This document shows, in pieces, positions 7,733 through 37,266 of a DNA stretch of 64,000 nucleotides. Under the pieces are notes generated by a model, which worked only from the letters and a program-made list of their open reading frames with translations, did not search any database and was not told the origin of the DNA. Source of the stretch: Dehalococcoidia bacterium (GTDB lineage: Bacteria > Chloroflexota > Dehalococcoidia > Lucifugimonadales > CATOSD01); contig CBDBBO010000001.1 of assembly GCA_965203135.1 (NCBI GenBank), forward strand, positions 1,678,071 through 1,742,070, given 5' to 3'. Each line of letters opens with the position of its first letter. The stretch's first letter is position 1. Position numbers and translations under genes: made by a program.

Positions 7733-7870
7733 GCGTCTTCCTCTCGAATCCTGGCTAAGGTCAGGGCCGATAGAGCGAATGGTTTTGGGGAATTGTAGCA
7801 CTTTCACGGCACTGAGATAGCCCTCTATTGCTTGACGCATATATACCATAAAAGATATATTCCATTGACA

Positions 7871-8221
7871 ATGTTGGAAATCATCATATTCAGAACACCA
7901 AGAGGCAGATCTCCAGTCACGCGGTTCATCGACCGGCTACCGCGGCGCTTGAGAACTAGAGTAGCCAAGGACGTTGAGCTGCTAGAGAGGTATGGTCTCG
8001 AGATGGGTATGCCATACATCAAGAAGTTGAGAGGTGCCACAAATATCTGGGAATTGAGAACTAGGCTTGGAAGCGACCAGGTGCGGATACTCTTTGGAGT
8101 ATTGACTGGTCGGCGGGTCGTTCTGTTGCACGGGTTTATGAAGAGGAGCGGACGTCTGCCGCCGAGAGAGATCAGGACTGCGGAACAGAGATTGAGGACC
8201 TATCTTGGGGGTGTCCAATGA
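7871..8221 (+). CDS. Type II toxin, RelE/ParE superfamily (HigB / phage Gp49-like)
   Basis: 'PRGRSPVTRFIDRL...IKKLRGATNIWELRTRLGSDQVRILFGVLTGRRVVLLHGFMKRSGRLPPREI' matches the Gp49/HigB-like pattern. There is a 4-nt ATGA overlap with the downstream HTH gene. The toxin-first order is typical of HigBA. Confidence 0.8.
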   Translation: MLEIIIFRTPRGRSPVTRFIDRLPRRLRTRVAKDVELLERYGLEMGMPYIKKLRGATNIWELRTRLGSDQVRILFGVLTGRRVVLLHGFMKRSGRLPPREIRTAEQRLRTYLGGVQ

Positions 8222-8499
8222 GCATGGGTATTCCATGGAGCGAGTACAGGCAGGAGTTGATGAAGGACCCCGAATTTGTGAAAGAGTATGAGGCTCTCGA
8301 ACCTGAGTACGAGTTGACCAGATTGCTCATTTCGCAGCGGATCAAGCGGGGTCTGACTCAGAAGGAACTGGCCGAGCGCATGAATACCACCCAGTCGGTC
8401 ATCTCCCGGCTGGAGAACGGTTCGGCGAACCCGTCGCTGGCTACGCTCAAACGCCTGGCCGACGCGCTGGATGCGCGCCTGGTCGTCCGGTTCGAATAG
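8218..8499 (+). CDS. XRE-family HTH antitoxin (HigA-like)
   Basis: 'RIKRGLTQKELAERMNTTQSVISRLENGSANPSLATLKRLADAL' is a classical XRE helix-turn-helix. It is translationally coupled to the toxin gene. Confidence 0.85.
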   Translation: MSMGIPWSEYRQELMKDPEFVKEYEALEPEYELTRLLISQRIKRGLTQKELAERMNTTQSVISRLENGSANPSLATLKRLADALDARLVVRFE

Positions 8500-8506
8500 A
8501 CAGGCG

Positions 8507-10177
8507 CTATTGGCCGGTGTAGAGCTCGGTGTCGGGGTGGAAGGCGTACCAGCCGAACCAGTAGGCCTCGTGGGAGGGGACGCGCGGCAGTACGGTCTCC
8601 GGCTCCAGCGGGCGGAACAGCCCGTGCTCGGCTATGTGCCACACGTTGCCGGCGGAGTCGCGCAGTTCCTGGGGCGGCGGACCGTTGGGGTCGCTCACCA
8701 CGTAGCCGTCCGGCACGGTGAACACCTCGTCGCCGCGCTCGTAGGCAGCCGCGCCGAGCGTGGTGGCCGAACCCGATACGAGGACGACGTTTACGCCGCC
8801 GACCTGGTCGTTGACCACGCGCTCGGTCTGCAGCGCATCCAGGGAGTAGGCCTTGCTGACGTCGCCCACACGGACGATGATGACGTAGGCCTTGGTGTCC
8901 AGCCTGTCGTCGCGCTGCCAGATGGGGAACATCGTGAGGGGGGAGGTCCGGTATTCGAAGTAGAACGACTGCGGGTTGTTCTCAGACTGGTACACCTCTG
9001 GCGGATAGATGCCGGTGTTGCGTGTGATAACCGTGGTGTCCGGGTGCTCCTCGCGCCACTCCTGCCAGGTTGTGAGGTTGACGGGGAAGAAATCGAGCTT
9101 GATGCCGCTGTCGGCCAGCTCGCCGATTACCGGCTCACCCAGAAGCTGGCTCCAGATGCTGCGCGTGGTCCTGTCGTACATCAGCTTGTTGCTACGGTAC
9201 AGCAGGCCGGAGGTGCCGAAGGTTGTCGGCTCCCCATCTATCTTCGCGGAATACACGATTCCGGCGCCGCAGAGCGTTCACCACGCCAGGGCGATGGGTT
9301 CGCCTCCCAGCACGTCGTTCACCATCTCGTGCGGGTTGGTGATGCGCAGCGGGTAGGCGCGGTGCTCGCCGTTTATGGACACACCGAAAACCCTGTCGCG
9401 CGCCAGTAGGTAGGGGGCCTCGTCCGCGGGGACCGCTTCGGGATCGCGCAGGTCGGGTATGCCGTCTATGGCGACGCCGCCCCAGGTGACCTCTGTGAGG
9501 TCTATCCGAGAGGTCTCCCCGGAGTCGGCGAGCAGCTCGATGTAGCCCTCGTCTATGAAGGACAGCAGGTTGGCCTTCCAGGCGGCGTAGCCCTCGGGCG
9601 GGCGGTAGCTTTCGCGGTTCGGGCCGTACCACTCCATCCACTTGTCCCACTCCTGCCGATCGAAGTCCTGACCGGTGAGCGAGCGGAGGGTCGACGCGGC
9701 AAGCTCCTGTTTTTCTTCGTCGAAGAAGAAGCGGAGCGACTCGATGAGGACCGGGACCTGGGAGACGTCTCGCTCGCGCAGGATGTCGGCCAGGGCCTGT
9801 TCGGTTTCGGGCTTTTCGAATCCAACCTTCGGAAACACCCTGTACATGGTGGCGGTCGGGTCGTAGTTCGGGTCGGGGGATGCCGGGGGCGCGGGGGTGA
9901 GCGCCGCGCTCGGGGCCGGCGGGGTGGTGGACGCAGCGGGGGCGATGGCGGCGGTGGGTGCGGGCTGCGCCGTGGGCGCCGTCGATCCGCCAAGCGCAGG
10001 CGGGGTTGTGGGCGCGGCTGGCGCGACCGCAGAAGTTGGCGGCGGCGGCGATGCCACAGGCACAGCCGGGATCGTGGGTTGCGGAGGCGCGGCGGTATCG
10101 CCTCCGCAGCCATAGGCCGCCACCGCGATCGCGGCGGCGGCCAGCACGAGGAGCAGACGTATCGGGCGAGGCGTCAA
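8507..10177 (-). CDS. DUF3179-family lipoprotein interrupted by a single in-frame TGA (9278-9280) at the first Cys of its CxxC motif. This is either a selenocysteine candidate or a nonsense pseudogene.
   Basis: Track ORFs 9278..10177 and 8507..9256 are in the same frame. The read-through peptide is '...GGEPIALAW-[TGA]-TLCGAGIVYSAKIDGEPTTFGTSGLLYRSNKLMYDRTTRSIW...'. From memory, DUF3179 proteins carry 'YCPLC...FGVSGLL...MYDRxT'. The N-terminus is a lipoprotein signal ('LAAAAIAVAAYGC') followed by a Pro/Ala/Thr linker. TTG start lies 6 nt after the upstream gene's stop. Confidence 0.7.
9245..9266 (-). promoter_or_regulatory. Candidate bacterial SECIS-like hairpin downstream of the in-frame UGA
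   Basis: The mRNA reads 5'-CGCCGGAAU CGUGU AUUCCGCG-3' and starts 12 nt after the UGA. There is a 6-bp stem (CCGGAA-U / A-UUCCG region) extendable by 2 bp across a bulged C. The 5-nt apical loop contains GU. The fold was done by eye only. Confidence 0.4.
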
Positions 10178-10183
10178 CCGCGC

Positions 10184-11317
10184 CTACTTGAGAAGCTCTT
10201 GGTGGAGCCTCTCGATGACGATGCCGAGCTCTTCCTCACTGAGGTTGAAAGGATCGATCACCAGCGAGTCGGGGTCGCCGACGTTGTGCAGGTAGATGGC
10301 GGGGTCGCCCTCGGTAAGCGAGTTCCAGATATCGTCGCGGCTGCGGCCGTTCCACTCGTCGGTGAGCTGCATCACCGCGTGAGGGATGAGGTAGTTGTAG
10401 GGGTCGTGCTCCACCGAAGCCTGGAGGCCGGGCACCTCGATGAATGCGTCGACCGCCTGCTGGCACATCTGGGTGTAGCGCTCGTTCTCTGCGTCCTCGT
10501 CCTCTTCGACGAAAATCTGCAGGGCGCTGACAAGCCCGATAATCTCTTCCTTGGCCACTTTCATGCCGCGTCCGAAGAACTGGTGCGGGCTGCCGTTGGC
10601 GAAGGCCGCCTCGATGAGGTCGGCGCGTCCGGCGAGGATGCCGGTGCCCTGCGGACCGCGCACGGCCTTGCCGCCGCTGTAGACCACCATGTCGGCGCCC
10701 TCGGCGGTGAACCGGCGCAGGTTGCTGCGGGGCGGGATGAACGAGGCGGCGTCCACGATGACGGGCACGCCTCGGGCGTGGGCAATCTCGCAGACCTGTG
10801 GGAACGGGATGGACCGGCGGGTGACGAACGGGGAGAAGAGGTAGGCCACCGCGGCGGTATTCTCGGTGAACGCGGCCTCGAGCTGCCAGGGCTGGCAGCG
10901 GCGGCCGTCGCCGATCTCCACGAACTTGGCGCCTACGGACAGGTAGCACTGGTCGTAGGGGAATCGGTGGCTCTTGTGGATGATTATCTCGTTCTTCATG
11001 CCGTCGGTGTTGGGCAGTCGGGCCATCTTGGCCGGATCGGAACCCGCGACGACCGCTGCCGCCTGAAGCACGAGGCCGCCGGCGGCGCCGCTGCAGACGA
11101 AGCCGGCCTCAGCGCCGGTGATGTCGGCGAGCACCTGGCCCGCGGCCCTGTTGAGCTCGTCCATGTTGACCATGGCGTTGGACGCGCGGTTCATGGCGTC
11201 CATCACCTCGGGCCGCAGCTTGCTGCCGCCGTAGGCGGTGGTCGAGCCGGAAGCCGAGATTATCGAGTTCACCCCGATGCTGCGATAGAAGTCTGGAGAC
11301 TCGCCGCTCCAAGTCAT
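10184..11317 (-). CDS. SelA-like (COG1921-type) PLP-dependent enzyme, short form (377 aa)
   Basis: 'VVYSGGKAVRGPQGTGILAG' resembles the SelA PLP-lysine motif (SGDKLLGGPQAG). A short SelA-like/DgaE-like architecture is plausible. Its stop lies 6 nt upstream of the DUF3179 gene start. Confidence 0.75.
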   Translation of the reverse strand: MTWSGESPDFYRSIGVNSIISASGSTTAYGGSKLRPEVMDAMNRASNAMVNMDELNRAAGQVLADITGAEAGFVCSGAAGGLVLQAAAVVAGSDPAKMARLPNTDGMKNEIIIHKSHRFPYDQCYLSVGAKFVEIGDGRRCQPWQLEAAFTENTAAVAYLFSPFVTRRSIPFPQVCEIAHARGVPVIVDAASFIPPRSNLRRFTAEGADMVVYSGGKAVRGPQGTGILAGRADLIEAAFANGSPHQFFGRGMKVAKEEIIGLVSALQIFVEEDEDAENERYTQMCQQAVDAFIEVPGLQASVEHDPYNYLIPHAVMQLTDEWNGRSRDDIWNSLTEGDPAIYLHNVGDPDSLVIDPFNLSEEELGIVIERLHQELLK

Positions 11318-12971: not shown

Positions 12972-13997
12972 ATGGATCAAGAACGGGCGAAAAGGACCGT
13001 CGGCTGCTTGTTCAGTGGGATGGGAGGATTCGCCTCTGGGCTTGCAAAGTCGGGCTTTGAGATCAGTTGGGCTACCGACAACGACAAGTACGCCTGCGCG
13101 ACATTCCGACACCGATTCCCAGACGTAAACTTGGTCGAGAAAGATGTTCGCAGTCTGTCTGTGTTTGGCGACAGCCTAACTGCGGTTGATGTGCTGACCG
13201 CCGGATTCCCCTGCCAAAGTTTCTCTCAAGCAGGTACGCGACGAGGCCTAGATGACCCACGTGGCAGACTATTTTATGAGATACCGCGTCTCCTGTCAGA
13301 GTACGAACCGGAAGCGCGGCCTCCTCTGGTAATCTTGGAGAATGTGCCGCACCTACTTTATGGAGCAGGAAAGGCTTGGTTCGATAGCGTCCGCCGTGCA
13401 ATTCGGCGTGCGGGGTATTGGTTCAGGGAGCAGTCGTGCTGGACGGTAAACGTGAAAGACGCAACAAGTCTTCCCCAAGACCGAGAACGACTGTTTTTGG
13501 TCGCCGCATCGCGCGCACACTTCAGCTTCAACCCCTTCACTCCTCCCTCTTTGGCCGACACTGGAAACGGGCATCTAAGGGCCCTCAGCGAATTTGTTGA
13601 CCGCACCAAGCCAGGGGCCCCAGAGGCATACTTGCCCAAGGACAACCGCTATTACAAGATGATCGACCGAGAGATGGCATCTGGGGAGTCAGTTTCAAAT
13701 ATATTCCAGTTGAGGCGGTCATACGTCCGTGAAAAGAAAAATGGGTTGTGTCCAACGCTTACTGCCAACATGGGCATTGGAGGACACAATGTGCCATTTG
13801 TGCGAGACTCTTGGGGAATTCGCCGGCTCAGCGTAGAAGAGGTGGCTCGACTACAAGGATTCGACGAGACGGAGTCGCTCTTCCCTGACATGCCGGCGGC
13901 AGAGAAGTATCGACTCTTAGGTAACGCGGTGTGTGTCCACCTAGCTCGTCTAGTGGGGCAGGCCTGCGCAGATATTCTTGACGGGCAAACAGCATGA
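12972..13997 (+). CDS. dcm: DNA (cytosine-5)-methyltransferase
   Basis: Canonical C5-MTase motifs are present. These are I 'FSGMGGF', IV 'GFPCQSFS', VI 'ILENVPHLL', VIII 'QDRERLFLV', IX 'RRLSVEEVARLQGF' and X 'GNAVCV'. Confidence 0.93.
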   Translation: MDQERAKRTVGCLFSGMGGFASGLAKSGFEISWATDNDKYACATFRHRFPDVNLVEKDVRSLSVFGDSLTAVDVLTAGFPCQSFSQAGTRRGLDDPRGRLFYEIPRLLSEYEPEARPPLVILENVPHLLYGAGKAWFDSVRRAIRRAGYWFREQSCWTVNVKDATSLPQDRERLFLVAASRAHFSFNPFTPPSLADTGNGHLRALSEFVDRTKPGAPEAYLPKDNRYYKMIDREMASGESVSNIFQLRRSYVREKKNGLCPTLTANMGIGGHNVPFVRDSWGIRRLSVEEVARLQGFDETESLFPDMPAAEKYRLLGNAVCVHLARLVGQACADILDGQTA

Positions 13998-15949
13998 CTT
14001 CAGACAATTCCGGCATCGGCTGGAACTTTCCACCCACCAATGGAGGGCGCGTCGACGGCTTTAACGATCCCGGTATCGCGCACTTTAGCGGTTCTCCGTA
14101 CTCTAGCCTCGCTCGAGAGACAATACAGAACTCGCTAGATGCGAGAGATAGATATGATCAGCCCGTGCATGTGTCTTTTGAAATGGTCGAGTTGCCGCCG
14201 GCCGACATGGGGCGAGCCGAACTTTCCCTCGCTATAGACGCTAGTCGCGGAGAGGTAGAGCCTGATGACCCTGCGCAACCTGAGCTAATCCGTGCTCAAG
14301 AAGTGCTCGCAAGGGAGAGGGTTCCGTTCTTACGTGTATCGGACCGGAATACGACCGGATTACGAGATAAGCAATGGCGGACTCTGGTCAAAATGCAGGG
14401 CGCGAGCTTTAAGGCAGACCTTGAAGGTGCGGGAGGCTCCTTTGGCATAGGCAAATACGCACCATTTGCCGTATCGACACTCCGCACAGTGTTCTATTGG
14501 ACTTGTTTTAGGGAGAACGGCAGGAATGTCGAACGGTTCCAGGGCAAGTGCGTTCTTATGTCGCACCATCAAGCAGGTACAGAAGTTCAGGGTACCGGGT
14601 TCTTCGGTCTGAGGGACGGCTGTGTCGAAATGACGACCTCCATTCCCGAGTGCTTCCGGCTGACTACGCAAGATTCGCTTCCTATACACGGCACGAGTCT
14701 CGCCATCGCTGGCTTCATGGAAGCCCAGGATTGGCGCAGACGGGTTGCCTCAAGTGTAATCGAGAACTTCTTCTATGCTATTGACCGGGGTCAACTTACG
14801 GTACTCATTGAGCCTGGTGACAAAGACGGAGACTTGTTTGAAATTGATGACGCTACCCTAGGTGATTGCTTCGCGACACTGCTGGACGACAACTCAGACT
14901 CCGAGGAAGACCAGGCTGAAGGGGGAACATCACTTAGTCAGGCTAGAGCGTTCTGGGAGATTTCAGACGCCGATGTGGTCCCAATCGAGAAACAGGACCA
15001 AGACCTCGGACACTGCCGGCTATGGATTCGTGTTCAAGATGGCCTCCCGAGCAGAGTAGGGTTTGTAAGGCGGACAGGCATGCTTGTCACGACGCAACAA
15101 CGCAACTTGATTCGCTTCCCAGGGTTTCGGGACTTCGCGGCTCTGTGCGTCTTTGAGGACCCTGCCGGCAACGAACTCTTGCGACGAATGGAGAACCCAA
15201 GACATGATCAATTCGAGCCGGACCGACTGCCGGAAGCAGATAGACAGCGAGGCAGACGGGCTCTGAAACGAATTACAGATTGGATACGGAGTGAAGTGCG
15301 AAAGTTAGCAGGTCCGCCTGAGGGTGGCAGATCCACAGTGCTGTCGGAGCTAGCTGTCTACCTGCCAGACTTGCAGCCTGATGAACCGTTTGAAGATGCT
15401 GGCAGCGAGAACGGAGGCACGGGGGAACCGGGTTTTGGGGAACGTGTCACCCTTGCACTTAAGCCCGTTCGTCGACCTACTCCGCCTACTTTACCCGCTA
15501 GCGAAGAATCGAACGAGGACGGAGACAGCCCCGGGGACGACGTAGGCAATGCTGGCGGGGGAGGTACTGGTGAAGGGGAAGGTGGAGGGGGCACAGACGG
15601 TACTGGTGAAGGGGAAGGTGAAGGCGGTACAGGGAGCCGTGGCGGCCGTCGAGCCAGAGTGAGAGGGATTCCCATATCTGGAGTCCGCATTTTGTCGATA
15701 CCTGGCCAAGAGAACTGCTACCAATTGAGCTTTCGCTCCAGCACCGGCGGTGAGGCGAGTCTTGAATTAGAAGAAGCCGGAGACTCGACTACTATCCGGC
15801 GCGACGACATCCGGCCTGTTGCTGAAGGTGTCTCCCTTGGGTGTGTACCACTGTTGGAAGGTCAGAGAACAACGATAGACATCACCGCCGACAGACCTAT
15901 CGGAGAAAGGGCGTGGCGTCTACGCGCCGTAGCCAACGACGGCGACTAA
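13994..15949 (+). CDS. GHKL-superfamily ATPase-like protein (paraMORC/MutL-like head) with a large uncharacterised C-terminal region and a Gly/Glu-rich linker
   Basis: ATGA overlap with dcm. N-box 'RETIQNSLDA', G1-like 'VSDRNTTGL' and G2 box 'GGSFGIGKYAPF' are present. The remaining roughly 450 aa are unassignable by eye. Confidence 0.7.
   Translation: MTSDNSGIGWNFPPTNGGRVDGFNDPGIAHFSGSPYSSLARETIQNSLDARDRYDQPVHVSFEMVELPPADMGRAELSLAIDASRGEVEPDDPAQPELIRAQEVLARERVPFLRVSDRNTTGLRDKQWRTLVKMQGASFKADLEGAGGSFGIGKYAPFAVSTLRTVFYWTCFRENGRNVERFQGKCVLMSHHQAGTEVQGTGFFGLRDGCVEMTTSIPECFRLTTQDSLPIHGTSLAIAGFMEAQDWRRRVASSVIENFFYAIDRGQLTVLIEPGDKDGDLFEIDDATLGDCFATLLDDNSDSEEDQAEGGTSLSQARAFWEISDADVVPIEKQDQDLGHCRLWIRVQDGLPSRVGFVRRTGMLVTTQQRNLIRFPGFRDFAALCVFEDPAGNELLRRMENPRHDQFEPDRLPEADRQRGRRALKRITDWIRSEVRKLAGPPEGGRSTVLSELAVYLPDLQPDEPFEDAGSENGGTGEPGFGERVTLALKPVRRPTPPTLPASEESNEDGDSPGDDVGNAGGGGTGEGEGGGGTDGTGEGEGEGGTGSRGGRRARVRGIPISGVRILSIPGQENCYQLSFRSSTGGEASLELEEAGDSTTIRRDDIRPVAEGVSLGCVPLLEGQRTTIDITADRPIGERAWRLRAVANDGD
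15563..15620 (+). repeat. In-frame 22-nt perfect repeat at a 36-nt period encoding the G/E-rich linker
   Basis: 'ggtactggtgaaggggaaggtg' occurs at 15563-15584 and 15599-15620. The peptide is 'GTGEGEGGGGTDGTGEGEGEGGTG'. Confidence 0.85.
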
Positions 15950-15951
15950 CC

Positions 15952-16809
15952 ATGAGGTTTGATCCAGGAAAGGCTTGGCCCCATCCCGTGCTCCGTCCGC
16001 CAACTTATGGAGACGATTATCCGCGTGCGGAGTTTGAGGTTGAAATAGAAGTTGAGCGTATCCAAGGCAGCACATCCGTAGACGTCACAGCAGAGTTTGA
16101 GCTCAGCGACCAAGACCTGCTCGGTCTCGTTGTGGATGGAGCGGCTCAGTATGTCTTGCTAATCAAGGCGTCAAGAACCCACTTCCGAGAGATGATCTCT
16201 GCGGAAGAACCGCTCATTGAGAGGATCTTTTCGGGAGGGGACTTGTCTGGTCGTGTGGAGTTCGCGCCCTTTCTGATATGCACAAAGGATCTGACCGACT
16301 TTCGTGCTGAAGGGTGGCACTCAGATTTCACAGGGCGGACATTTAACATATCCGCTGGCTCAGTGCTGGCAGAGGATGTGCCGAAGGACTATTGGGTCGA
16401 CACGGCTGATGAGGCGCCCCTCGGTTCGATCTTTGGGCACAAGTTCCGGCCGGACGTGCCCAACGGGCGCTGGGAACTTGAGCTGGCGGAAGAGCGGGTC
16501 TGGATCGTGATGTCCAAATCGGATTCGGAGTTGTACGCGGAGGCGCGAGAGCGGGCTAGACGTAGTCCTGAAGGTCAGAATTTGATGAATGGCCTGTACT
16601 TGCCTGCTCTGATTGCAGTACTGAACGAAGTGGACAGGAACATCGGAGACTACAGTGACTACCGATGGTTCGCGTCGCTTGACCATCGCCTACAGACGGT
16701 TGATTGCAAGGAGTTGGGGGTCTCGGACGCCAATCGTGTGGTCGATGCTCAAAGAGTCCTCGACATGCCCTTCACCAAGATGCCCATGATTGCAGAAGCA
16801 GGGACTTAG
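15952..16809 (+). CDS. Hypothetical protein (285 aa), no recognisable family
   Basis: The ATG at 15952 lies 2 nt after the upstream stop and has normal amino-acid composition. The track ORF start at 15841 overlaps the upstream gene and was rejected. I could not find a clean PD-(D/E)xK, HNH or P-loop motif. Confidence 0.7.
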   Translation: MRFDPGKAWPHPVLRPPTYGDDYPRAEFEVEIEVERIQGSTSVDVTAEFELSDQDLLGLVVDGAAQYVLLIKASRTHFREMISAEEPLIERIFSGGDLSGRVEFAPFLICTKDLTDFRAEGWHSDFTGRTFNISAGSVLAEDVPKDYWVDTADEAPLGSIFGHKFRPDVPNGRWELELAEERVWIVMSKSDSELYAEARERARRSPEGQNLMNGLYLPALIAVLNEVDRNIGDYSDYRWFASLDHRLQTVDCKELGVSDANRVVDAQRVLDMPFTKMPMIAEAGT

Positions 16810-16814
16810 GACGT

Positions 16815-17576
16815 ATGCCCAACCTGAGGTATTACACGTCTGCGGTCGTTGAGGACCTTCGAACAAGAGTCGCGGAGCACCTTGACTGGTACTATGCACC
16901 AGAGGGCAGTCCTTTTTCTGTTGCGCCTGTAGGAGGCGTAAGGGAATCGAGCATAACAGCCCCTAAGCTCGCTGGGCTCTTGGCTGTGAACGAAGAGCGC
17001 CCATTTGCCACTGACGTCGAAAACGCACTCGCAGTGTATGAGGCTCTATCCGCATTGACGCCGCACCAAGCCTCAATAGAGCGGATGTGGGTGTATCTGT
17101 GCCACCACGATTGCCCTCAGTACGTCGCCGCGCGTTGGCTGAACCGACGGCCAGAGTCGGATGAGGACGCAGTTCGCGAGGTTCGGAATCACTTTTTTGC
17201 GGTCGGCAATCGAGCGCTCATACGGGATAATGCGGTCTCAAGGCTTTGGTGGCTCGGAAAAATCGCCTATGACGTTGATCCTAACGCCCCGCGTGAGTTT
17301 CTGACGATTCTCCTCCACCGGCAGGATGTGCGTTCTGCTTTAATTGAGCGTCCGTCAGTGTCGACGAATCGGCGAGTGTTGCGCGGAATATATGAGGTAA
17401 TGGCGGAGTACTGGTCAGACGGCGGAGCACTGTTCACTCGGGAGATTTTTCGGTCGTGGATGATCGCTTTGAACCGTCGCGGCGGAGTAATTCTCTTAGA
17501 CGCACTCCCCGAAGACGCGTTGAGACAGCTATTGCGTGAAGAGGCGCGTGTGGCTATAGAAGAGTATTCGGCTTAG
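16815..17576 (+). CDS. Hypothetical protein (253 aa), no recognisable family
   Basis: The ATG at 16815 lies 5 nt after the upstream stop. The protein is helical-looking ('ERMWVYLCHHDCPQYVAARWLNRR', 'AVSRLWWLGKIAY'). No catalytic motif was recognised. Confidence 0.7.
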   Translation: MPNLRYYTSAVVEDLRTRVAEHLDWYYAPEGSPFSVAPVGGVRESSITAPKLAGLLAVNEERPFATDVENALAVYEALSALTPHQASIERMWVYLCHHDCPQYVAARWLNRRPESDEDAVREVRNHFFAVGNRALIRDNAVSRLWWLGKIAYDVDPNAPREFLTILLHRQDVRSALIERPSVSTNRRVLRGIYEVMAEYWSDGGALFTREIFRSWMIALNRRGGVILLDALPEDALRQLLREEARVAIEEYSA

Positions 17577-19677: not shown

Positions 19678-19971
19678 GGCGATCCTCGACAGGCGTTCGC
19701 CCGTAGTGTGGGCAGGCTACCATGCGGCCTGTGCAGGGGCGTAGGCTAACGGGGGCGTGGTACTCGGGGCTTTCACCCTGACCCATTCGGCAGGCTCAGG
19801 GCAGGCACACTAGATTCCTCGGCTACGCTCGGAATGGCAGAGGTGGGAGGGGGAAGGGAACAAACGGCTTGTTTCCCATGCGGGCCGGGCTGTTGTACAC
19901 TACGCCGCAGCCGTTGCGTTGGCCCTGTTTTGTATTTGGACAGTATTCGTAGCACCCGACGAGGCGGAGCG

Positions 19972-21402
19972 ATGGACTTCGACGCATACGACCTCGACCC
20001 CACCATATATGACGAGATGTTCCTGCCCGGCGGCGAGCCGCGCGAGCACGTCCGGCTTCTCCACGACGAGATGCTGGAACTCACCGCCGAGGACCTGGAG
20101 AGCATCCAGGAGAGGGTTACCCGCTCGTTCTCCACCGAGGGCATTACGTTCACGGTGTACGGAGACGACGAGGCGGACGAGCGGATCATCCCAATCGACT
20201 GCGTTCCGCGCGTGCTTTCGGGCGAGGAGTGGAACGGCCTGGAGGCCGGGCTGACCCAGCGGCTCAAGGCGCTCAATATGTTCCTGGAGGACGCCTACGG
20301 CCCGGCGCGCATAATCGAGGACGGCGTGATTCCGGTGGACGTGGTGAGGGGCTGTCCCCAGTACCGCCTGGAGATGCGCGGGTTCTCCGCGCCCCATGGC
20401 ACGTGGGTCGCCATCTGCGGCACCGACATCGTGCGCACCAACGACGGCTTCATGGTGCTGGAGGACAACCTGCGCGTGCCGTCCGGGGTGTCCTACATGC
20501 TGGCGAACCGCAAGGCCGCCAAGGCGAGCCTGCGCAGACTGTACCGCAACTCCCGCGTGCGCGACGTGGAGCACTACGGCCGGATGCTGGTGGAGACGCT
20601 GCGGGAGCTCGCACCGCGTGGGCAGTCCGATCCTTCCATCGCGCTGCTGACGCCGGGCGTGTACAACTCCGCCTTCTACGAGCACATGTTCCTGGCCCAC
20701 GAGCTGGGCGCGGAGCTGGTGGAGGGCCGCGACCTGCTGGTGAACGACGGGTTCGTTTACATGCGCACCACTTCCGGTCTGAGGCGGGTGGACGTGATAT
20801 ACCGCCGCGTGGACGACGACTTCATCGACCCGCTGGTGTTCCGTCCCGACTCGCTGCTGGGCGTGCCGGGGCTGATGCACGCCTACAAGCAGGGCAACGT
20901 GACACTGGTGAACGCGCCGGGCACGGGCGTGGCCGACGACAAGAGCGTGTACGCCTACGTGCCCGACATGATCCGCTACTACCTGTCCGAGGAGCCGCTG
21001 CTGGCCAGCGTGGAGACTTACCTGTGCCGGCGGCCGGAGGACCTGGAGTACACGCTGGACAACCTGGCGAACCTGGTGGTCAAGCGCGTGGGCGAGTCGG
21101 GCGGCTACGGGATGCTGATAGGCCCCCACGCCACGCCCGAGGAGCGGGATGAGTACGCGAAGGGGGTACGGGCGGACCCGGCGGACTTCATTTCGCAGCC
21201 GGTGCTGTCGCTGTCGCGCTCGCCGTGCGTCATCGACGGCCAGTTCGAGCCGCGCCACGTGGACCTGCGCCCGTTCGTGCTGCACGGACGGGAGACGCGC
21301 ATAGTGCCGGGCGCGTTCTGCCGGGTCGCGCTGCGCAGGGGCAGCCTGGTGGTGAACTCCAGCCAGGGCGGCGGCGGCAAGGACCTGTGGGTGCTGGAGT
21401 AG
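19972..21402 (+). CDS. Circularly permuted type-2 ATP-grasp protein (DUF404/DUF407)
   Basis: 'YDEMF...PREH...', 'ITFTVYGDDEADERIIPIDCVPRVL', 'VLEDNLRVPSGVSYMLANR' and 'VNAPGTGVADDKSVYAYVP' are characteristic. The start is at MDFDAY (ATG 19972) with an upstream GAGGCGGAG. Confidence 0.88.
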   Translation: MDFDAYDLDPTIYDEMFLPGGEPREHVRLLHDEMLELTAEDLESIQERVTRSFSTEGITFTVYGDDEADERIIPIDCVPRVLSGEEWNGLEAGLTQRLKALNMFLEDAYGPARIIEDGVIPVDVVRGCPQYRLEMRGFSAPHGTWVAICGTDIVRTNDGFMVLEDNLRVPSGVSYMLANRKAAKASLRRLYRNSRVRDVEHYGRMLVETLRELAPRGQSDPSIALLTPGVYNSAFYEHMFLAHELGAELVEGRDLLVNDGFVYMRTTSGLRRVDVIYRRVDDDFIDPLVFRPDSLLGVPGLMHAYKQGNVTLVNAPGTGVADDKSVYAYVPDMIRYYLSEEPLLASVETYLCRRPEDLEYTLDNLANLVVKRVGESGGYGMLIGPHATPEERDEYAKGVRADPADFISQPVLSLSRSPCVIDGQFEPRHVDLRPFVLHGRETRIVPGAFCRVALRRGSLVVNSSQGGGGKDLWVLE

Positions 21403-21446: not shown

Positions 21447-21563
21447 GACTTTAGAGAAGGCCCGTCTATGCGTTGCCGTTGCCGCGGGGTATGCGCTAAA
21501 ATGCCAACGTGCGGCGTTTGCCGCAAGACCGGGTTTCCAGCCCGTGACGACGGAGGTTCCACA

Positions 21564-22967
21564 GTGCCGAACGACAACATTGCTCTCACCGCTCACCTCA
21601 TGCGCCGCGCGGGGTTCGGCGCGACTCGTGGCGAGCTCGAACGGCTGGACGCGATTGGCTATGAGGCCGTGGTCGAACAGCTACTTCACCCCGAAGACGC
21701 CCCCGACGTCGACGAGGACGTGCTGAGGCGCTACTACCCCGAACTGACGTATCCCGACTCGCTGCCCATCTGGGTGGGCCGCTGGATGTACCGCATGATA
21801 AACAGCCAGCGTCCGCTGGAGGAGAAAATCGCGCTCTTCTGGCATCACGTGTTCGCCACCGCCTGGTACAAGGGCGAGCACACGCCCAGCAACATCAAGC
21901 AGATCGACTGGTTCCGGGAACTGGGTCTATCCAACGTCCGCACCATTCTGGTGGAATTGTCCAGGGATCCGTCGATGAACTACTGGCTGGACAACTGCGA
22001 GAACCACAGCACGCAGCCCAACGAGAACTGGGGCCGCGAACTGCTTGAGTTGTTCTCGATGGGGGTGGGCAACTACACCGAGGACGACATCAAAAACGCC
22101 GCCCGCGCGTTCACGGGCTGGACGTTCACGCAGCCGATACCGCTGTATCCCTACGGCCACCACGACACCGAGTTCGTGTACCTGGAGCAGGACCACGACG
22201 ACGGTGAGAAGGAGTTCCTGGGCGAGGTGGGCCACTTCGATGGCGAGGACATCATCGCCATCATCGTGAAGCAGCCCGCCACCGCGCGCTTCATCTCGCG
22301 GCACCTGTACAACTTCTTCGTCGCTGACGAGCCGCAGGTGCCGGCTTGGGAGTTGGAGCCGCCGCAGGACCCGGAGGCGATAGACGCGCTGGTGGACGCC
22401 TACTTCGAGTCCGACGGCGACATGCGGGTGATACTGCGGACGCTGTTCAACTCCGACTTCTTCAAGAACGCGCGCTCCGCAAAGGTGAAGAGTCCCGCGG
22501 AGTTGGTCGCGGGCACCATCAAGCTGGCGGGCACGCACACGTTCCCCGAGCTTGGGCTGACGCAGGTGGGCGGCGCGCCGGGGCTGATGGGCCAGGAGCT
22601 TATGAACCCGCCGACGGTGGAGGGCTGGCACACCGGCAAGGAGTGGATAGACGGCGGCACGCTCAACCAGCGCGTGAACTTCGCGGTCAACCAGATCGGC
22701 GACGCGTCCAAGCCGGGCGTCCGGGACATCATCGACAGGCTGGCCGCCGAGGGCGGGCCGATTGCGCCGGAGTTGTTCGTCGAGCGGTGCCTCGACCTGG
22801 CCGGTCCGGTCGACGCGGGCGAGGAGACCCGCGCCGGCCTGCTCAACTTCGCGAGCAAGGGCGGCGACCTGCGGTTCGACAGCGACGAGGAGCGGGAGGT
22901 CAGCGAAGCCCGAATCGCGCGGATGCTGCAACTGATCGTCGCGACGCGGGAGTACCAGTTCGCTTAG
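21564..22967 (+). CDS. DUF1800 domain-containing protein
   Basis: 'LTAHLMRRAGFGATRGELE', 'LALFWHHVFAT' and 'NENWGRELLELFSMGVGNYTEDDI' are typical DUF1800 motifs. The start was chosen at GTG 21564, which is 7 nt after GGAGG, and remains uncertain. Confidence 0.85.
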   Translation: MPNDNIALTAHLMRRAGFGATRGELERLDAIGYEAVVEQLLHPEDAPDVDEDVLRRYYPELTYPDSLPIWVGRWMYRMINSQRPLEEKIALFWHHVFATAWYKGEHTPSNIKQIDWFRELGLSNVRTILVELSRDPSMNYWLDNCENHSTQPNENWGRELLELFSMGVGNYTEDDIKNAARAFTGWTFTQPIPLYPYGHHDTEFVYLEQDHDDGEKEFLGEVGHFDGEDIIAIIVKQPATARFISRHLYNFFVADEPQVPAWELEPPQDPEAIDALVDAYFESDGDMRVILRTLFNSDFFKNARSAKVKSPAELVAGTIKLAGTHTFPELGLTQVGGAPGLMGQELMNPPTVEGWHTGKEWIDGGTLNQRVNFAVNQIGDASKPGVRDIIDRLAAEGGPIAPELFVERCLDLAGPVDAGEETRAGLLNFASKGGDLRFDSDEEREVSEARIARMLQLIVATREYQFA

Positions 22968-23952: not shown

Positions 23953-25089
23953 ATGGTAGCCATCAAGAAGCCCCCGGTGCTGGTGATAGTGCAGCTTACG
24001 GGCGGCAACGACTTCATGAATACGCTCATCCCCTACACCAACCCGGTGTACCACGACAACCGGCCGCTGGTGGGCATCCCGCAGGAGCAGGTCATACCCA
24101 TCGACGACACGCTGGGCTTTCACCCGAACTTCGGTCCGGTGAAGGAGCTTTACGACCAGGGGAAGGTCGCCATAGTGCAGGGCATCGGCTACCCCAACTC
24201 CAGCCGCTCGCACTTCCGGGGCATGGACATCATGCACACGTGCGAGCCGGAACGCGTGGCCACGGAGGGTTGGGTTGGCAAGACGATACGCGAGCTTGAC
24301 CCGAACGGCGACAACGTGCTGACGGGCATCAACTTCGGCGTGGGGCTGCCGCGCGCCATGGCGGTGCCCGGGGTGCCGGTGACGTCGGTGAGCGACCTGG
24401 ACAACTACGGGCTGATGACGGGCATATCGGACGTGGACCAGCGCGACCAGGCGCTGCAGATATTCAAGGACATGTACGGTCCGGCCATAGGCACGGGGCC
24501 GGTGATGGAGTACCTGGCGCAGACCGGAAATGACGTGCTGAAGGGCGCGGACAGGCTGAAGGAGGCGCCCGCGGCCTACTCGTCCAACGTGGAGTACGCG
24601 GCCACGCCAATCGCGCGCGCGCTGCGCGACGTGGCGCGTGTGCATTTGGCGGGCCTGGGGACGCGCATCTTCTACACGAGCCAGGGCGGCTACGACACCC
24701 ACGCCAACGAGGTGCCCACGCACCCCAAGCTGGTGGACGAGCTTTCGCGCGCGATAATGGACTTCTTCCAGGACCTGCGCGAGCACGACGCCTCGGAAGA
24801 GGTGGTGATGTACGTGTTCACCGAGTTCGGGCGGCGCATCTACGACAACGGAAGCGGCACGGACCACGGGTCCGGCGGCGGCGCGTTCATCATCGGCGAA
24901 CGGGTCGAGGGCGGCCTGTACGCGGAGTATCCGTCGCTGGAGCCGGACAAGTGGCTGAACGGCGAGGACCTGGCGCACACCATCGACTTCCGCGGCATCT
25001 ACGGCACGCTGCTGGAGCAGTGGCTGGGAGTCGAGGCGGCGCCGATAGTGGGCGGCCAGTTCGAGCAGGTGAATCCGTTCGCCAACTAA
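23953..25089 (+). CDS. DUF1501 domain-containing protein (sulfatase-like fold)
   Basis: 'LTGGNDFMNTLIPY', 'QGGYDTHANE' and 'GSGTDHGSGG' are hallmark DUF1501 motifs. Confidence 0.88.
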   Translation: MVAIKKPPVLVIVQLTGGNDFMNTLIPYTNPVYHDNRPLVGIPQEQVIPIDDTLGFHPNFGPVKELYDQGKVAIVQGIGYPNSSRSHFRGMDIMHTCEPERVATEGWVGKTIRELDPNGDNVLTGINFGVGLPRAMAVPGVPVTSVSDLDNYGLMTGISDVDQRDQALQIFKDMYGPAIGTGPVMEYLAQTGNDVLKGADRLKEAPAAYSSNVEYAATPIARALRDVARVHLAGLGTRIFYTSQGGYDTHANEVPTHPKLVDELSRAIMDFFQDLREHDASEEVVMYVFTEFGRRIYDNGSGTDHGSGGGAFIIGERVEGGLYAEYPSLEPDKWLNGEDLAHTIDFRGIYGTLLEQWLGVEAAPIVGGQFEQVNPFAN

Positions 25090-26212: not shown

Positions 26213-29200
26213 ATGTCCAAGCGTAGCAGGCGCAAGAAACAGCGACGCAAGGAAAAGCGGCGCAATGCTCCAGAGGTGCGGCTCGAAAGGGAGCCGTCGG
26301 TGAATTCGGGGCCACAGGCTTCGACCTCGCCGATTGGGAACGTCCGACGGCCGATTTTGAACCCATGGGGCTCGCCAGTGAGGTCTCAACCCAGTTCGAC
26401 CGAGAAGACCCAACGGAAGGACTGGACTCCCATGCGGCACGCCAGCGCGGACTTGGCCTACACCGACCGGAAAGGCCCGACGGAAGAACTGGACCCGATA
26501 CCGCCAACCATTGAGGACTCGACTCAGACTGAATGGGCAGGACCGTCAGGCCCGATCGGCGTATACATCGACGAGGAACGGCGAGGGACACTCAGCGCCT
26601 ACCGCAGCCAACCGAACCTTGTAGACGAACACGCCAATCACGAGCAAGACACGGCCCGGGGCGGCTACGCTTATCGGCAGCTGTTCGAGTTGGTGCAGAA
26701 TAGCGCCGACGCCCTGGCTGATTTGGACGGCGGGCGCATCGAATTGCGCCTGACCTCCGACTATCTCTACTGCGCCGATGATGGACGGGCCATCGACTCG
26801 GACGGCGTGAGAGCCCTCATGTTTTCCCACCTGTCTCCCAAGCGCGGAACAGCGGAAATCGGGAGATTTGGGCTAGGATTCAAGTCTGTCCCTGGCGTCA
26901 CCGATTCCCCCGAGTTTTTCAGCCGCTCCGGTTCATTCCGGTTCGACGTCGAAAGAGCGCGGGAAGAGATACGACGTGTCGCCCCTGACGCCGAGCGCTA
27001 CCCAGCGCTGCGGCTGCCTGTTGCTATCGACCCACTGCCGGAGATGGAGGCCGACACAGTTCTACGCGATTTGGCCGATTGGGCTACCAACATCGTGCGC
27101 CTGCCGCTCAAGCCAGGGGCCAGGGAGTCCCTGTTGCAGCAGGCCAAGGACTTCCCGCCGGAGTTTCTGCTGTTCGTCGAGCACGTGTCGGAACTGAACA
27201 TCCAAGCCGATAGCGATGCCCAGCGCTCCATCAGGCTGAGGCGCCTAGGCGACTTCCGTAAGCCCGCTAACGGTGATCAGCGACCTTCTATGAAAGTGGC
27301 AGTGCCGAAGCTGATCCGCGAAAGCGATTTCCATGTGCTCGCGGACGGTGATAAGGAAGCTCAGTGGATGGTCGTTAGTACCGTTCACAAGCTTTCCGAG
27401 GACGCTAGGGCCGACAGCCGAAGCCTCGATGACGCCACGGAAGTAGAGATCAAGTGGGCGGCCCCTGTAGAAAGGTTGAATGAGCCTGGCCGCTTCTGGG
27501 CATTCTTTCCCACGCAGACTTCGAGCTTGCTCGCCGGCATACTTAACGCGCCGTGGAAGACAAACGAGGACCGGCAGAACCTGCTGCCTGGGGTCTACAA
27601 CGACGAGCTGATTGACGCGGCGGCGGCAATGGTGGCCAAAGCTGTGCCACGGTTGTCCAACAAGAGCGTACCCGCTCGCCATCTTGACGCACTGCCTCGT
27701 CGAGAAGAAGCCGGTGACAGTGAACACAGCAAGAGACTTCGGGATCAACTGCAGGCGAACCTGCGTGGTGTGAGAATCGTTCCAGACCAGTTGGGCATAC
27801 TCCACAGGCCCACCGAGCTCATGTACGCTCCGACCGAAATCACTGACCCGAGACGGGGGGCTGCACGTGCGCTCGGGAGGTGGGGCGAGTACGAGGGCCG
27901 ACCCAAGAACTGGGCGCACCACAGCGCGCTCACTCGTAACAGGTTAGCGGCCATCAGATCGGTCATGCCAAACAGGGTTGTTCGTAGTTCCTACGGAGGG
28001 GTGACGTTTACGACTCAGCATGGTCCCGTGAAACTCGAGGTGGCAACGGTGGATGAGTGGCTGCAAGCGTTGGTAGACGATGCGGATATCCCGGAGAGGC
28101 ATCTCGAGAGATCGGCCACCGCGATCCAGACTGCGGCGCTGATACCAGAAGCGATCCGGCAGGGCAATAGCCTCGGTCGAATAGTGCTTACGACTAGGGG
28201 TAGCTGGGTCGAACCTGATCCCGAATCCGTGTTTCTCGGCGGCGGGTTTGGCGGCGGCTCAGCCACGGTGGTGCATCCGCAACTGGAGGCCGATCCGGAA
28301 ACACTGAGCGCGCTGAAGGCGCTCGGCATAGGGCCCGCTTCAGCGGAGACTGAGCTCAGTGCTGCGGCCGATAAACTGCTGGTTTACAGACCGTACTACA
28401 GGGGAACGCCGCCAGATGGCGACTGGCTCAGTTTCTGGCGTCTTGCACGGAACGTTGAGCATGACACCGCTTATGAGATCATTCAAGCCCATGAGCACTG
28501 GCAGAGTTCGCTGCGTGTTCGCACAATCGCAGAGGTGTGGCGCTCCCTGAACCATGCCTTGCTACCCGGACCAATCATTCCGGCAGACGGTAGTGGCGAT
28601 CCCGACATGGCAATAGACATACGCTTTCACGAGGCGGATCTTTCCTTGCTGAGGCAGCTTGGTGCGGTGGACACGCCCTCTGCGGGGCGCGAACTGTCAC
28701 TGGAGCATATGTGGAGATTTCGTGGGAAGTGCAGAAGCACTTTCATTAGATCCGCAGAGAGTGAAGTAGGGCATTCACCGCGTGACCATATGCTCAACTT
28801 TGAGATTCTCGCTACCACAAGCGGTCCTTTGGATGTGTTAGAGCTTCTTTCCGAATACCAGAACGCGGAGTACACGTGGCGTCTCCTCAGCTTGCGCGAC
28901 ACCTACTCACAGTGGACGATGCGTCATGACACCCGAGACATTTACCCGCCCATGGATTTCGATTCGCCAGCACTGGAAGTGCTTCGGGAACACGGGCGGA
29001 TCGTTACGGATGAGGGCATTCGACCGCTCTCTGACGGGCTGGGCAATCCACCAAAAGACATTGCAGTGTTGCGCAAGCTGCTTTCGCACCCTCAAGCCGA
29101 CAGAATTAGAGAAGCCTTCGGACTGCCGGACGACGAGGAGTTACCGGTCGAGCCGCTTGACGAGGACGCGCCCATACCGCTGCTCGACGAGTGGCCAGGT

Positions 29201-33228: not shown

Positions 33229-34197
33229 ATGCTGTCCCGCAGCGCCCAGGGACTCTACTGGCTGGGCCGCTACCTGGAGCGGGCGGAGCACCTGTGCCGC
33301 CTGCTCCAGCTCCAGACCGAGGCGCTCGTGGACAGGCCCATCCAGGAGATTTATCACGGCTGGCGCCGGATATACCGCTGCATCGGAGCCCAGCCGACGG
33401 TCGGCCTGTTCGATCCGGGGGCAGATGACAACTACACCCTGGCCGACTCGTACACGCTGGCCGACGAGTTGACGTTCGAGCGCTCGAATCCCGCGTCGGT
33501 GTGGAGTTGCTTCGCGCTGGGCCGGGAGAACGCCCGGCAGATGCGGCACTGCATCAGCGCGGAGATGTGGACGTCGCTGAACGTCCCATACCTGCGGCTG
33601 CGGGAGATGTCGATCCAGAATATATGGGCGACCTCGCCGGAGAGCTTCTACGCGCAGACCGCCGCGGACGTCAACACCTTCAATGGCGTCGCCGGAGCGA
33701 CGATGTATCGCGACGAGGGCTGGCGCTTTCTGCAGCTCGGGCAGTTCGTCGAACGCTCGCAACTCACGGCTTCGCTGCTGCTGGCTCAGATGGGCATAGA
33801 CGCCCCTGAGCTGGAAGACACCTACGCCGGCTGGAACGGCCTGCTGCGGATTTACCATGCCTCCGAGATTTACGCGAGCAACTACGGTGTGGAGGTGCAG
33901 CCCGGCCAGGTTCTGGACCTGCTCGCCACAGACCCGCAACTGCCAAACTCGCTATGCCGTTCCATCGACAAGGTGTCGGAGGAGATTGGTCACCTGGCGG
34001 CCGGTCCCGACCAGGCGTCCAACGGCGCCGCGCGGCGCCTGACGGGTCGTGCGCGGGCCATGGTCCACTACGATTGGGCCGACGTGGACGACCATCGGGG
34101 TCTGCTGGAGCGCGTGCGGGGATTCTGCCGCGATCTGCACGGCCTGGTGGTTACCGCCTACTTCGACTATCCCATAGGGGATTGGCCCGCGCGCTGA
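33229..34197 (+). CDS. Alpha-E domain protein (DUF403)
   Basis: 'MLSRSAQGLYWLGRYLERAEHLCRLL' and 'YRDEGWRFLQLGQFVERSQ' are characteristic of the alpha-E family. Confidence 0.85.
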   Translation: MLSRSAQGLYWLGRYLERAEHLCRLLQLQTEALVDRPIQEIYHGWRRIYRCIGAQPTVGLFDPGADDNYTLADSYTLADELTFERSNPASVWSCFALGRENARQMRHCISAEMWTSLNVPYLRLREMSIQNIWATSPESFYAQTAADVNTFNGVAGATMYRDEGWRFLQLGQFVERSQLTASLLLAQMGIDAPELEDTYAGWNGLLRIYHASEIYASNYGVEVQPGQVLDLLATDPQLPNSLCRSIDKVSEEIGHLAAGPDQASNGAARRLTGRARAMVHYDWADVDDHRGLLERVRGFCRDLHGLVVTAYFDYPIGDWPAR

Positions 34198-36034: not shown

Positions 36035-37266
36035 GTGGGCCAGGTGCTGTTCGACAACTGTACGCTGCTGGACACGCCTACGGGGCAGATGCTCGAGGGG
36101 CGTCGGGTCCTCGTGGTGGACGACCGGGTGGAGGAGGTGTCGGACTCGCCGATTTCGGCGCCCAATGCCAGGCGCATAGACGTTGGCGGCAGGACGCTGA
36201 TGCCCGGCATGATAGACGCGCACGTGCACTGCACCGCGGCGACCATGAACCTGGCGAACATGGCTTACATGCCCGCGACGCTAATGGCGCACGAGGCGGC
36301 CGCGATTCTGCGCGGCATGCTGGCGCGGGGATTCACCACGATACGTGACGCGGCGGGCGCGGACCGGGGCCTTGCGGCAGCCGTGGACAAGGGACTGGTG
36401 CACGGCCCGCGCATATATTACGCGGGTCGGGCGCTGAGCCAGACAGGGGGACACGGAGACCTCGCGTCCATCCCGGACGAGCCGGAGCTGTGCGCCTGCT
36501 CGATCAAGTCCACCTGGATGGCGCACGTGGTGGATGGAGTGGACGGGGTTCGCAGGGCCGCGCGCGAGGAGCTGCGCCGGGGGGCGCACGCCATCAAGAT
36601 CATGGCGTCGGGGGGCGTGGCCTCGCCGACAGACCCAGTCAGGAACACGCAGTACTCGCGCGAGGAGCTACGCGCCATCGTGGAGGAGACCGAGGCGTTC
36701 CACACCTACGCCTTCGCGCACGCTTACAGCGCGGAGGCCATCACCCGCGCGATCGAGGCGGGGGTGCGCACTATCGAGCACGGCAATCTCATCGACGACG
36801 ACGCGGCGCGACTGATGGCGCAGCGCGGCGCGTTCATCGTGCCCACGCTGGTCACGTACCACACCATCAGTGAGTTCGGCCCTCTTTTGGCTTCCCGGAG
36901 GTCAGCCTGCGCAAGACCGACGAGGTGCTGGACATAGGTCTGGCCTCTCTGGAGATATGCAAGCGTGCGGGCGTGAGCATGGGGTTCGGCACCGACCTCC
37001 TGGGCGAGATGCACCCGCACCAGTCGCGGGAGTTCCTGATACGCTCGGAGGTGTTCAGTCCCTGGGAGATCATCCGGGACGCGACCGTCACCAACGCCCG
37101 CATCCTGCGCATGGAGGGGCAGCTCGGCGTGGTGGCGCCCGGCGCGCTCGCCGACGTGCTGATCGTCGACGGCGACCCCACGCGCGATCTGGGCGTGCTC
37201 CAGGGCCAGGGGGAGCACATACCCTTCGTGATGAAGGCGGGCGAGATCCTCATCGACAGGCTGTAG
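36035..37266 (+). pseudogene. Amidohydrolase-family metal hydrolase with a frameshift near 36878-36890 (real pseudogene or assembly error)
   Basis: The N-terminal part (36035..36870) contains 'LMPGMIDAHVHC' and 'KIMASGGV'. The protein continues in the -1 frame as '...FGFPEVSLRKTDEVLDIGLASLEICKRAGVSMGFGTDLLG...VDGDP' to 37266. The break lies at a C/T homopolymer patch 'ggccctcttttgg'. Confidence 0.75.

Follow-up and report, generated by a model that had tools for sequence, protein, structure and literature searches.

The minus-strand gene at positions 10177 to 8507 of a 64,000-nucleotide stretch of the genome of a Dehalococcoidia bacterium (contig CBDBBO010000001.1, positions 1,678,071 to 1,742,070), hereafter the window, is very probably a functional selenocysteine-decoding gene of the DUF3179 family in which residue 300, encoded by an in-frame TGA, is selenocysteine (Sec). 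The gene combines an in-frame UGA, homologs with cysteine, a stem-loop that resembles a selenocysteine insertion sequence (SECIS) element, and downstream coding sequence under selection, which are the sequence features of a bacterial selenoprotein gene. An alternation of Cys and UGA together with a downstream hairpin is what defines the bacterial genes that depend on SelB and Sec-tRNA(Sec) for their decoding, fdhF of Escherichia coli being the paradigm. The assignment of residue 300 follows from the Cys/UGA alternation at a CxxC motif, the hairpin 11 nt after the UGA, the G and U in its loop and the in-frame continuation of the coding sequence. The same features lead us to infer Sec, and no other amino acid, as the residue inserted.

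The gene starts with TTG at 10177 and ends with a TAG stop at 8507-8509, the TGA at 9278-9280 being the only internal stop of the frame. The list of open reading frames (ORFs) divides it into 9278..10177 and 8507..9256, both on the minus strand. The first-pass annotation had pointed out that these two ORFs share one frame and are parted by this TGA alone and had given the read-through peptide as EPIALAW-[TGA]; both statements hold. The peptide reads ...GGEPIALAW-[TGA]-TLCGAGIVYSAKIDGEPTTFGTSGLLYRSNKLMYDRTT and, in its longer context, ...NPHEMVNDVLGGEPIALAW-[TGA]-TLCGAGIVYSAKIDGEPTTFGTSGLLYRSNK..., while the tryptic peptide across position 300 would be ITNPHEMVNDVLGGEPIALAW-U-TLCGAGIVYSAK in the Sec form. 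The features of the gene, all on the minus strand, are the following.

8507..10177, minus strand: complete predicted selenoprotein gene, 556 codons with Sec at codon 300, plus the TAG stop.
10106..10177, minus strand: probable signal peptide with a lipoprotein-type Cys24, MTPRPIRLLLVLAAAAIAVAAYG-C-GG (sequence inspection).
9866..10105, minus strand: Pro/Ala/Thr-rich low-complexity linker, residues ~25-104; the equivalent stretch of the Cys homolog P0009 has a predicted local distance difference test score (pLDDT) <50.
9473..9865, minus strand: all-helical N-terminal domain, residues ~105-235; the AlphaFold2 model of P0009 has helices at 86-210 with pLDDT >90.
8528..9466, minus strand: DUF3179 domain (PF11376), residues 238-550, spanning the TGA (Pfam profile match).
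9329..9331, minus strand: CAC, His283, 16 residues ahead of Sec, in the family-wide pattern [D/N]-x-H-x16-C-x-x-C.
9278..9280, minus strand: TGA, predicted Sec codon, residue 300, first position of U-T-L-C; TGA alternates with TGC, and full-length homologs have Cys.
9269..9271, minus strand: TGC, Cys303, second residue of UxxC; Cys in 75/75 sequences, encoded by TGC in 97% and by TGT in the rest.
9254..9256, minus strand: GTG, Val307, within the hairpin loop; a false start that yields a 249-aa C-terminal ORF in gene calls.
9245..9266, minus strand: SECIS-like hairpin, mRNA positions 15-36 with the U of UGA as position 1; the spacer to the UGA is 11 nt.

When the TGA is translated as Cys, the read-through protein gives one unbroken match to PF11376, in which residues 238-550 cover positions 2-292 of the 292-position profile (259 bits, E = 8e-77, gathering cutoff 27 bits). 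The TGA is thus found in the middle of a domain and not between two genes. Membership in DUF3179 is given by this score above the threshold and by a U/C-x-x-C/T motif placed ahead of the F-G-T-S-G block. The helical domain that precedes it (residues ~105-235) matched no Pfam family. By inspection, the N-terminus has an h-region followed by A-Y-G-C, whose Tyr at position -2 is a non-canonical lipobox residue, and all full-length homologs have a hydrophobic N-terminus followed by A/G-C-G-S. The predicted selenoprotein is therefore probably an extracytoplasmic lipoprotein.

TGA is the usual stop of 12 of the 37 Pfam-supported genes of the window, including the ilvB-like gene 59953-61719, so that genome-wide recoding does not apply, in agreement with the ordinary TGA stops cited in the first-pass annotation. 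All other TGA codons separating in-frame ORF pairs in the window were scanned for the signature of coding sequence in the GC content at third codon positions (GC3). This signature is found on both sides only at 9278-9280, apart from a TGA at 40414. The latter was considered as a second selenoprotein candidate and rejected, as it is a plain stop directly followed by ATG.

A species-level scan that kept the best match per genome and one genome per species yielded 80 loci. Nearly all are from metagenome-assembled genomes (MAGs) labelled Dehalococcoidia (Chloroflexota), with OZ242014.1 on top at 94% identity. The codon at the Sec column is TGA in 75 of these 80 genomes and TGC in the other five, the TGA forms being 55-94% identical to each other. 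Note that one TGA-form locus (L022, JAPOVR010000002.1) bears the label 'Actinomycetes bacterium', in contrast to the Dehalococcoidia or Chloroflexota labels of all others; wrong binning or classification of this MAG contig is the probable cause. Metagenomes were scanned as well for the exact TGA-plus-hairpin pattern, which is present in at least 100 contigs, many of them marine by record name.

The TGA is reflected in public gene calls. Four loci (L001-L004) carry a pair of DUF3179 ORFs split by the in-frame TGA. The eight clusters closest to the gene product in a protein search (81-92% identity), and a further one at 67%, consist throughout of 249-residue proteins, which correspond exactly to the C-terminal fragment starting at the GTG after the TGA. 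Relatives of ~540 aa (~59% identity) have the signal peptide with its Cys, the linker, the helical domain and the DUF3179 domain without interruption. At the column of the TGA they read LAY-C-T-L-C-G, so that the homolog alignment proposed as a check in the first-pass annotation places a Cys exactly there. The first-pass annotation had placed a conserved Cys motif at this site, and that part stands; its C-P-L-C type does not, the clade having C-T-L-C. Across the family, CxxC is present in 87 of ~106 informative representatives at 50% identity (CTLC 75, CPLC 6, CSLC 3), and a small number of representatives have CxxT or CxxS. At least 12 representatives start with M/V-Y-S/D straight after the motif, the signature of other TGA forms in which gene calling wrongly started at this GTG. 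A second DUF3179 paralog is found less than 2 kb from the Sec form in four loci (L026 at ~4915, L048 at ~1433, L053 at ~1506 and L069 at ~1537). Its motif is C-V-L-C in L048, L053 and L069 and a degenerate D-V-Q-T in L026, which means that Sec, Cys and motif-less paralogs coexist in some Dehalococcoidia genomes.

Purifying selection acts on both sides of the TGA. Ratios of nonsynonymous to synonymous substitution (dN/dS), computed by the Nei-Gojobori method (NG86) between the window gene and twelve orthologs, are 0.04-0.34 over the 60 codons upstream of the TGA. Over 100 codons downstream they are similar, with a single exception among the twelve comparisons, and dS ranges from 0.2 to >2. The 75 distinct TGA-form sequences show no extra stop and no frameshift or indel over 161 aligned codons. 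Codons +1 to +4 after the TGA (Thr, Leu, Cys, Gly) occur as 4, 4, 2 and 4 synonymous codons, respectively, with no amino acid replacement in the 75 sequences. As these four codons precede any possible restart codon and vary only synonymously, they are translated.

The hairpin that follows the TGA has the arms and loop CGCCGGAAU/CGUGU/AUUCCGCG. Its core is a 6-bp stem formed by 9247-9252 and 9258-9263 that is closed by the loop CGUGU (9253-9257). In the window version C18 (9263) is alternatively bulged, with extension of the lower stem. Folding of the window hairpin gives core pairing probabilities of 0.86-0.99 and a contribution of -7.7 kcal/mol, which agrees with the hairpin with G/U in its loop described in the first-pass annotation. 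That TGA-bearing homologs should share this hairpin was borne out in all 75 TGA forms, which keep the 11-nt spacer, a stem of 6-8 bp and the loop CGUGU. The 6-bp core is paired in ~99% of cells (61 distinct sequences), its changes being limited to A-U to G-U, G-C to G-U, one double change of C-G to U-A and, at loop position 1, C to A. One pair further out (17-35), C-G is found in 10 sequences and G-C in 8, tied to co-varying Thr/Ser and Gly/Ala codons. In controls in which the 3' partner was slid, pairing falls from 80% to 15-52%.

The same region stands out at the codon level. Codons +6 to +10 (GGA ATC GTG TAT TCC), whose 15 nt make up a 5-bp GGAAU/AUUCC stem and the CGUGU loop, average 0.14 bits of codon entropy versus 1.15 +/- 0.50 for other conserved degenerate codons. 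They form the lowest-entropy five-codon window in 161 codons and use GGA and TAT, though the gene elsewhere favours GGC and TAC. The five TGC forms have GGC ATC GCC TAC AGC at this position and lack such a hairpin. The RNA-level constraint goes with the TGA.

In the proposed mechanism, the UGA at 9278-9280 would be decoded as Sec in the standard bacterial way. The hairpin 11 nt downstream, with its stem of 6-8 bp and its G and U in the CGUGU loop, would act as a SECIS element and recruit the SelB-GTP-Sec-tRNA(Sec) complex to the ribosome. Sec would then be inserted instead of termination, giving one polypeptide of 556 residues in which Sec300 replaces the first Cys of CxxC. Sec300 would be the likeliest reactive residue of the protein, either as a redox-active selenylsulfide or selenol or by binding a metal jointly with Cys303 and the invariantly spaced His283.

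The interruption of the frame might instead come from a TGC or TGT codon that mutated to TGA or was misread as such, which would make the gene a nonsense pseudogene or the product of a base-call or assembly error, the alternative that the first-pass annotation had kept beside a selenoprotein. Errors or pseudogenes do occur in this assembly, as an amidohydrolase gene at 36035-37266 looks frameshifted with its junction at a T-run. The TGA of the DUF3179 gene, though, is shared by 75 of 80 independent species-level genomes and by the 100 or more metagenome contigs, its two flanks evolve with dN/dS well below 1 at dS values up to >1, and the 161 codons aligned in 75 sequences are free of extra stops and frameshifts. 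An error spread by a clonal contaminant does not fit with TGA forms that differ from each other as much as these do. Purifying selection on both halves leaves this explanation with a negligible chance. Real termination at the TGA would split the gene into a lipoprotein of 299 aa and a C-terminal protein of 249 aa initiated at GTG 9256. Gene callers annotate two ORFs in every related genome inspected, and the GTG follows the TGA after 21 nt (24 nt between the first letters of the two codons). Such a split is opposed by codons +1 to +4, placed before the GTG, which keep the family motif T-L-C-G through synonymous variation only. It would also cut one beta module of a compact domain that is a single unit with pLDDT >90 in the model of the Cys homolog, and leave a C-terminal piece without signal peptide. 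The GTG itself is part of the conserved hairpin loop, no ribosome-binding site was seen by eye upstream of it, and the TGC forms are uninterrupted; a split gene is thus very improbable. Taken together, selection, the synonymous-only codons +1 to +4 and the RNA-level constraint of the hairpin exclude, on comparative grounds, that the gene is a nonsense pseudogene, that it is truly split or that the TGA is a sequencing error. The UxxC selenoprotein form of DUF3179, which was the other option of the first-pass annotation, is supported by the Cys homologs, the TGA in 75 of 80 genomes, the hairpin and the purifying selection.

Site-specific read-through of the UGA, stimulated by the hairpin and leading to Cys, Trp or Gly, a standard amino acid, in place of Sec, has a better, if still small, chance. 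In its favour are the absence of Sec machinery from the sequences searched and the fact that sequence analysis does not fix the identity of the inserted residue. Several results weigh against decoding as Sec. Searches of the 64-kb window and of 1.06 Mb of related loci (184 loci) found neither selA, selB or selD nor tRNA-Sec. They relied on tblastn, for which SelA, SelB and SelD of E. coli served as queries to the window and to every related locus, and on ARAGORN, which detected no tRNA-Sec in the window or in the 184 loci; Rfam likewise reported no tRNA-Sec in the window, its sole match there being a T-box. The SelA-like neighbour 10184-11317 does not qualify as Sec synthase, with 40.7 bits for TIGR00474 (selA) against a cutoff of 267.9. 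The fold of a 71-nt segment with the hairpin is no better than that of shuffled sequences (z = 0.75), and true compensatory covariation in the core is confined to one sequence. In the literature searched there is no experimental evidence for selenium in any DUF3179 protein. Note that, owing to the result of the single-sequence fold, fold stability was not used as evidence and comparative data were used instead, and that a hairpin so close to invariant leaves little room for covariation in its core. Insertion of a standard amino acid is opposed by the combination of Cys/UGA at CxxC with a hairpin at SECIS spacing and G/U in the loop, which defines Sec decoding, by the efficiency of TGA as a stop elsewhere in the window, by the previous listing of DUF3179 as a selenoprotein family and by the Sec-decoding, selenoprotein-rich members of the class Dehalococcoidia. 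Decoding of the UGA as Sec remains the reading that we strongly favour.

The first-pass annotation had asked whether DUF3179 is catalogued as a selenoprotein family. It is, among prokaryotic selenoprotein families and with the motif UxxC/T, in reviews of 2022 and 2026 (PMC9312934, PMC13188914). Both reviews cite Zhang & Gladyshev 2007, a study of the Olavius algarvensis symbiont metagenome (PMC1976440) in which the prediction was computational. Database examples of DUF3179 selenoproteins are MBW1804167.1 and MDJ0986319.1. In the same class as the window host, Dehalogenimonas carries selC, selB and the genes of Sec synthesis besides selenoproteins (PMC4918011), and Dehalococcoidia MAGs with 46-49 selenoproteins are among the richest bacteria in BSepDB (PMC13326102). 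By analogy, the literature thus provides support at the level of the class for Sec decoding in Dehalococcoidia. Mukai et al. 2017, consulted for a different way of recoding UGA in Dehalococcoidia, offers nothing relevant, and the literature searched contains no functional study of DUF3179.

The AlphaFold2 model of the Cys homolog P0009 has a mean pLDDT of 84.6, with values >90 outside the signal peptide and the linker. The helical domain is followed by an all-beta DUF3179 domain composed of two similar beta modules, and the corresponding modules of the window protein give a weak mutual alignment (BLASTP E = 0.008). Sec300 probably occupies a reactive loop site. A His exactly 16 residues before the first Cys is found in 85 of 88 diverse motif-bearing representatives, defining the pattern [D/N]-x-H-x16-C-x-x-C whose residues in the window protein are Asn281, His283, Sec300 and Cys303. 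A Foldseek search of the P0009 model against the PDB gave no match with E <0.1. Rieske-fold chains recur among its weak matches (3c0d_C, 2qpz, 2jo6, 4aiv, 7vju, 7c8z); for 3c0d_C, itself a weak match with E not <0.1, the template modelling score normalised by the target is 0.52 and the root-mean-square deviation 3.2 A over 86 columns. Alignment by hhalign to a 5-sequence Rieske alignment was negative (probability 1.8%), and Pfam searches of the sub-domains at E up to 10 brought nothing new. The only match of a PDB sequence-profile search, papillomavirus E2, was discarded as due to chance.

The spacing of the Rieske box (CxH-x15-17-CxxH) of Rieske/NirD-like modules is that of the DUF3179 pattern, two of the four Rieske ligands being replaced in DUF3179 (Cys by Asp/Asn and His by Cys). 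This likeness is weak and provides a lead, not membership. It is conceivable, but on present evidence unlikely, that DUF3179 is a tandem of two Rieske/NirD-like modules, the first with a remodelled [D/N]-x-H-x16-(U/C)-x-x-C site in which Sec would be a ligand or redox partner at a mononuclear metal site. The marine Dehalococcoidia proteins with this site would be extracytoplasmic lipoproteins. If this were true, it would represent a type of selenium-containing site without characterised counterpart that is fixed in nearly every species of a marine Dehalococcoidia clade.

The gene next to the predicted selenoprotein gene, 10184-11317 on the minus strand, codes a pyridoxal 5'-phosphate (PLP) enzyme of the DgaE family and ends 6 nt ahead of the selenoprotein start codon. 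Its best NCBIfam match is DgaE/selA_rel TIGR01437 (226.6 bits), with a weak match to the SelA Pfam family PF03841 (E = 1.6e-10). SelA and this protein are both fold-type I PLP enzymes, the neighbour (377 aa) being without the SelA N-terminal domain. The tblastn matches of SelA are this DgaE-like neighbour, and those of SelD are ThiL-like in L082 and HypE/AIRS-like in L024, as judged from the ORF sequences; none was retained as a Sec gene. The DgaE-family gene adjoins ~11 of 75 Sec-type loci and none of the five Cys-type loci, and since the adjacency is confined to these ~11 loci no functional link is proposed.

On the other side, a Gp49/HigB-like toxin gene (7832-8221, plus strand) overlaps an HTH_3 antitoxin-like gene (8218-8499). 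The pair, at 7832-8499, runs towards the 3' end of the selenoprotein gene in convergent orientation, and an HTH gene is found there also in L002 and L003. The Amidohydro_1 gene 36035-37266 (plus strand) is read in two frames, profile positions 1-205 in 36035-36937 and 230-343 in 36925-37266, with the junction near a CTTTTG run at ~36885. The split reflects either a frameshift that makes this gene a pseudogene or an assembly error in a homopolymer.

The T-box leader at 61717-62034 (minus strand; Rfam RF00230, 110 bits, full model) is placed directly upstream of the ilvB-like thiamine pyrophosphate enzyme gene 59953-61719. It is followed on the same strand by genes for ketol-acid reductoisomerase (58328-59326), a LeuA-like protein (54559-56316) and an aconitase-family, LeuC-like protein (50964-52364), an arrangement that has the look of a cluster for branched-chain amino acids under T-box control in a Chloroflexota genome. 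A Mrr_cat and RAMA restriction-endonuclease-like gene (56771-57583, minus strand) lies between the leuA-like gene and ilvC in a second low-GC patch (0.548). The first is an island at 12972-17576 (plus strand) with a GC content of 0.55 versus ~0.65, located between DLH and PTE genes and coding a C5 cytosine DNA methylase, a DUF6339 protein and ORFs of 651 aa and 322 aa, the latter two without Pfam or NCBIfam match. L001 and L003 have different genes at this position, which makes the island a variable hotspot, probably related to defence. A 1602-aa ORF (26213-31021, plus strand; GC slightly lower, 0.59-0.61) has a C-terminal ResIII/DEAD/SNF2 helicase region (residues ~1190-1570), its ~1190 N-terminal residues falling outside any family. 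The window also has conserved uncharacterised systems, namely a circularly permuted ATP-grasp gene and an Alpha-E domain gene that are 12 kb apart, besides a DUF1800/DUF1501 pair.

19834-21402, plus strand: ATP-grasp gene.
33229-34197, plus strand: Alpha-E gene.
21468-22967, plus strand: DUF1800 gene.
23953-25089, plus strand: DUF1501 gene.

As the status of the family as selenoproteins is already in the literature, knowledge of Sec decoding is unchanged by this gene, and what is new is modest. It consists of the Sec form as the rule in a Dehalococcoidia clade (75 of 80 species), the essentially invariant SECIS core, the false GTG start within the hairpin loop and the conserved His at Rieske-like spacing in the family. 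The position of the GTG in the loop explains the systematic annotation as two ORFs. About 75 further species-level Dehalococcoidia genomes share the in-frame TGA, and their annotation could be corrected via the pattern TGA-N14-GGAATCGTGTATTCC. The selenium form is the default in an abundant marine lineage, with relatives in many marine metagenome contigs, and suggests that an uncharacterised secreted protein has a selenium-dependent role outside the cytoplasm, in redox chemistry or linked to a metal.

Judged by what a sequence can reveal, the window gene agrees in every respect with the known DUF3179 selenoproteins: it shares with them the Pfam family, Sec as the first residue of U-x-x-C, the Cys homologs and a SECIS-like hairpin. 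The known members were first found in a deltaproteobacterial symbiont while the host of the window gene belongs to the Dehalococcoidia (Chloroflexota). The window clade differs further by the additional N-terminal lipoprotein signal, linker and helical domain and by the Sec form being the norm (75 of 80 genomes). The hairpin resembles the well-established SECIS element of E. coli fdhF, read by SelB, in its start 11 nt after the UGA, its short loop with G and U, its optional bulge and its location within the coding sequence, which constrains synonymous sites. It differs from the fdhF element by a shorter stem (6-8 bp), a loop of 5 nt (CGUGU) and an extreme conservation across species.

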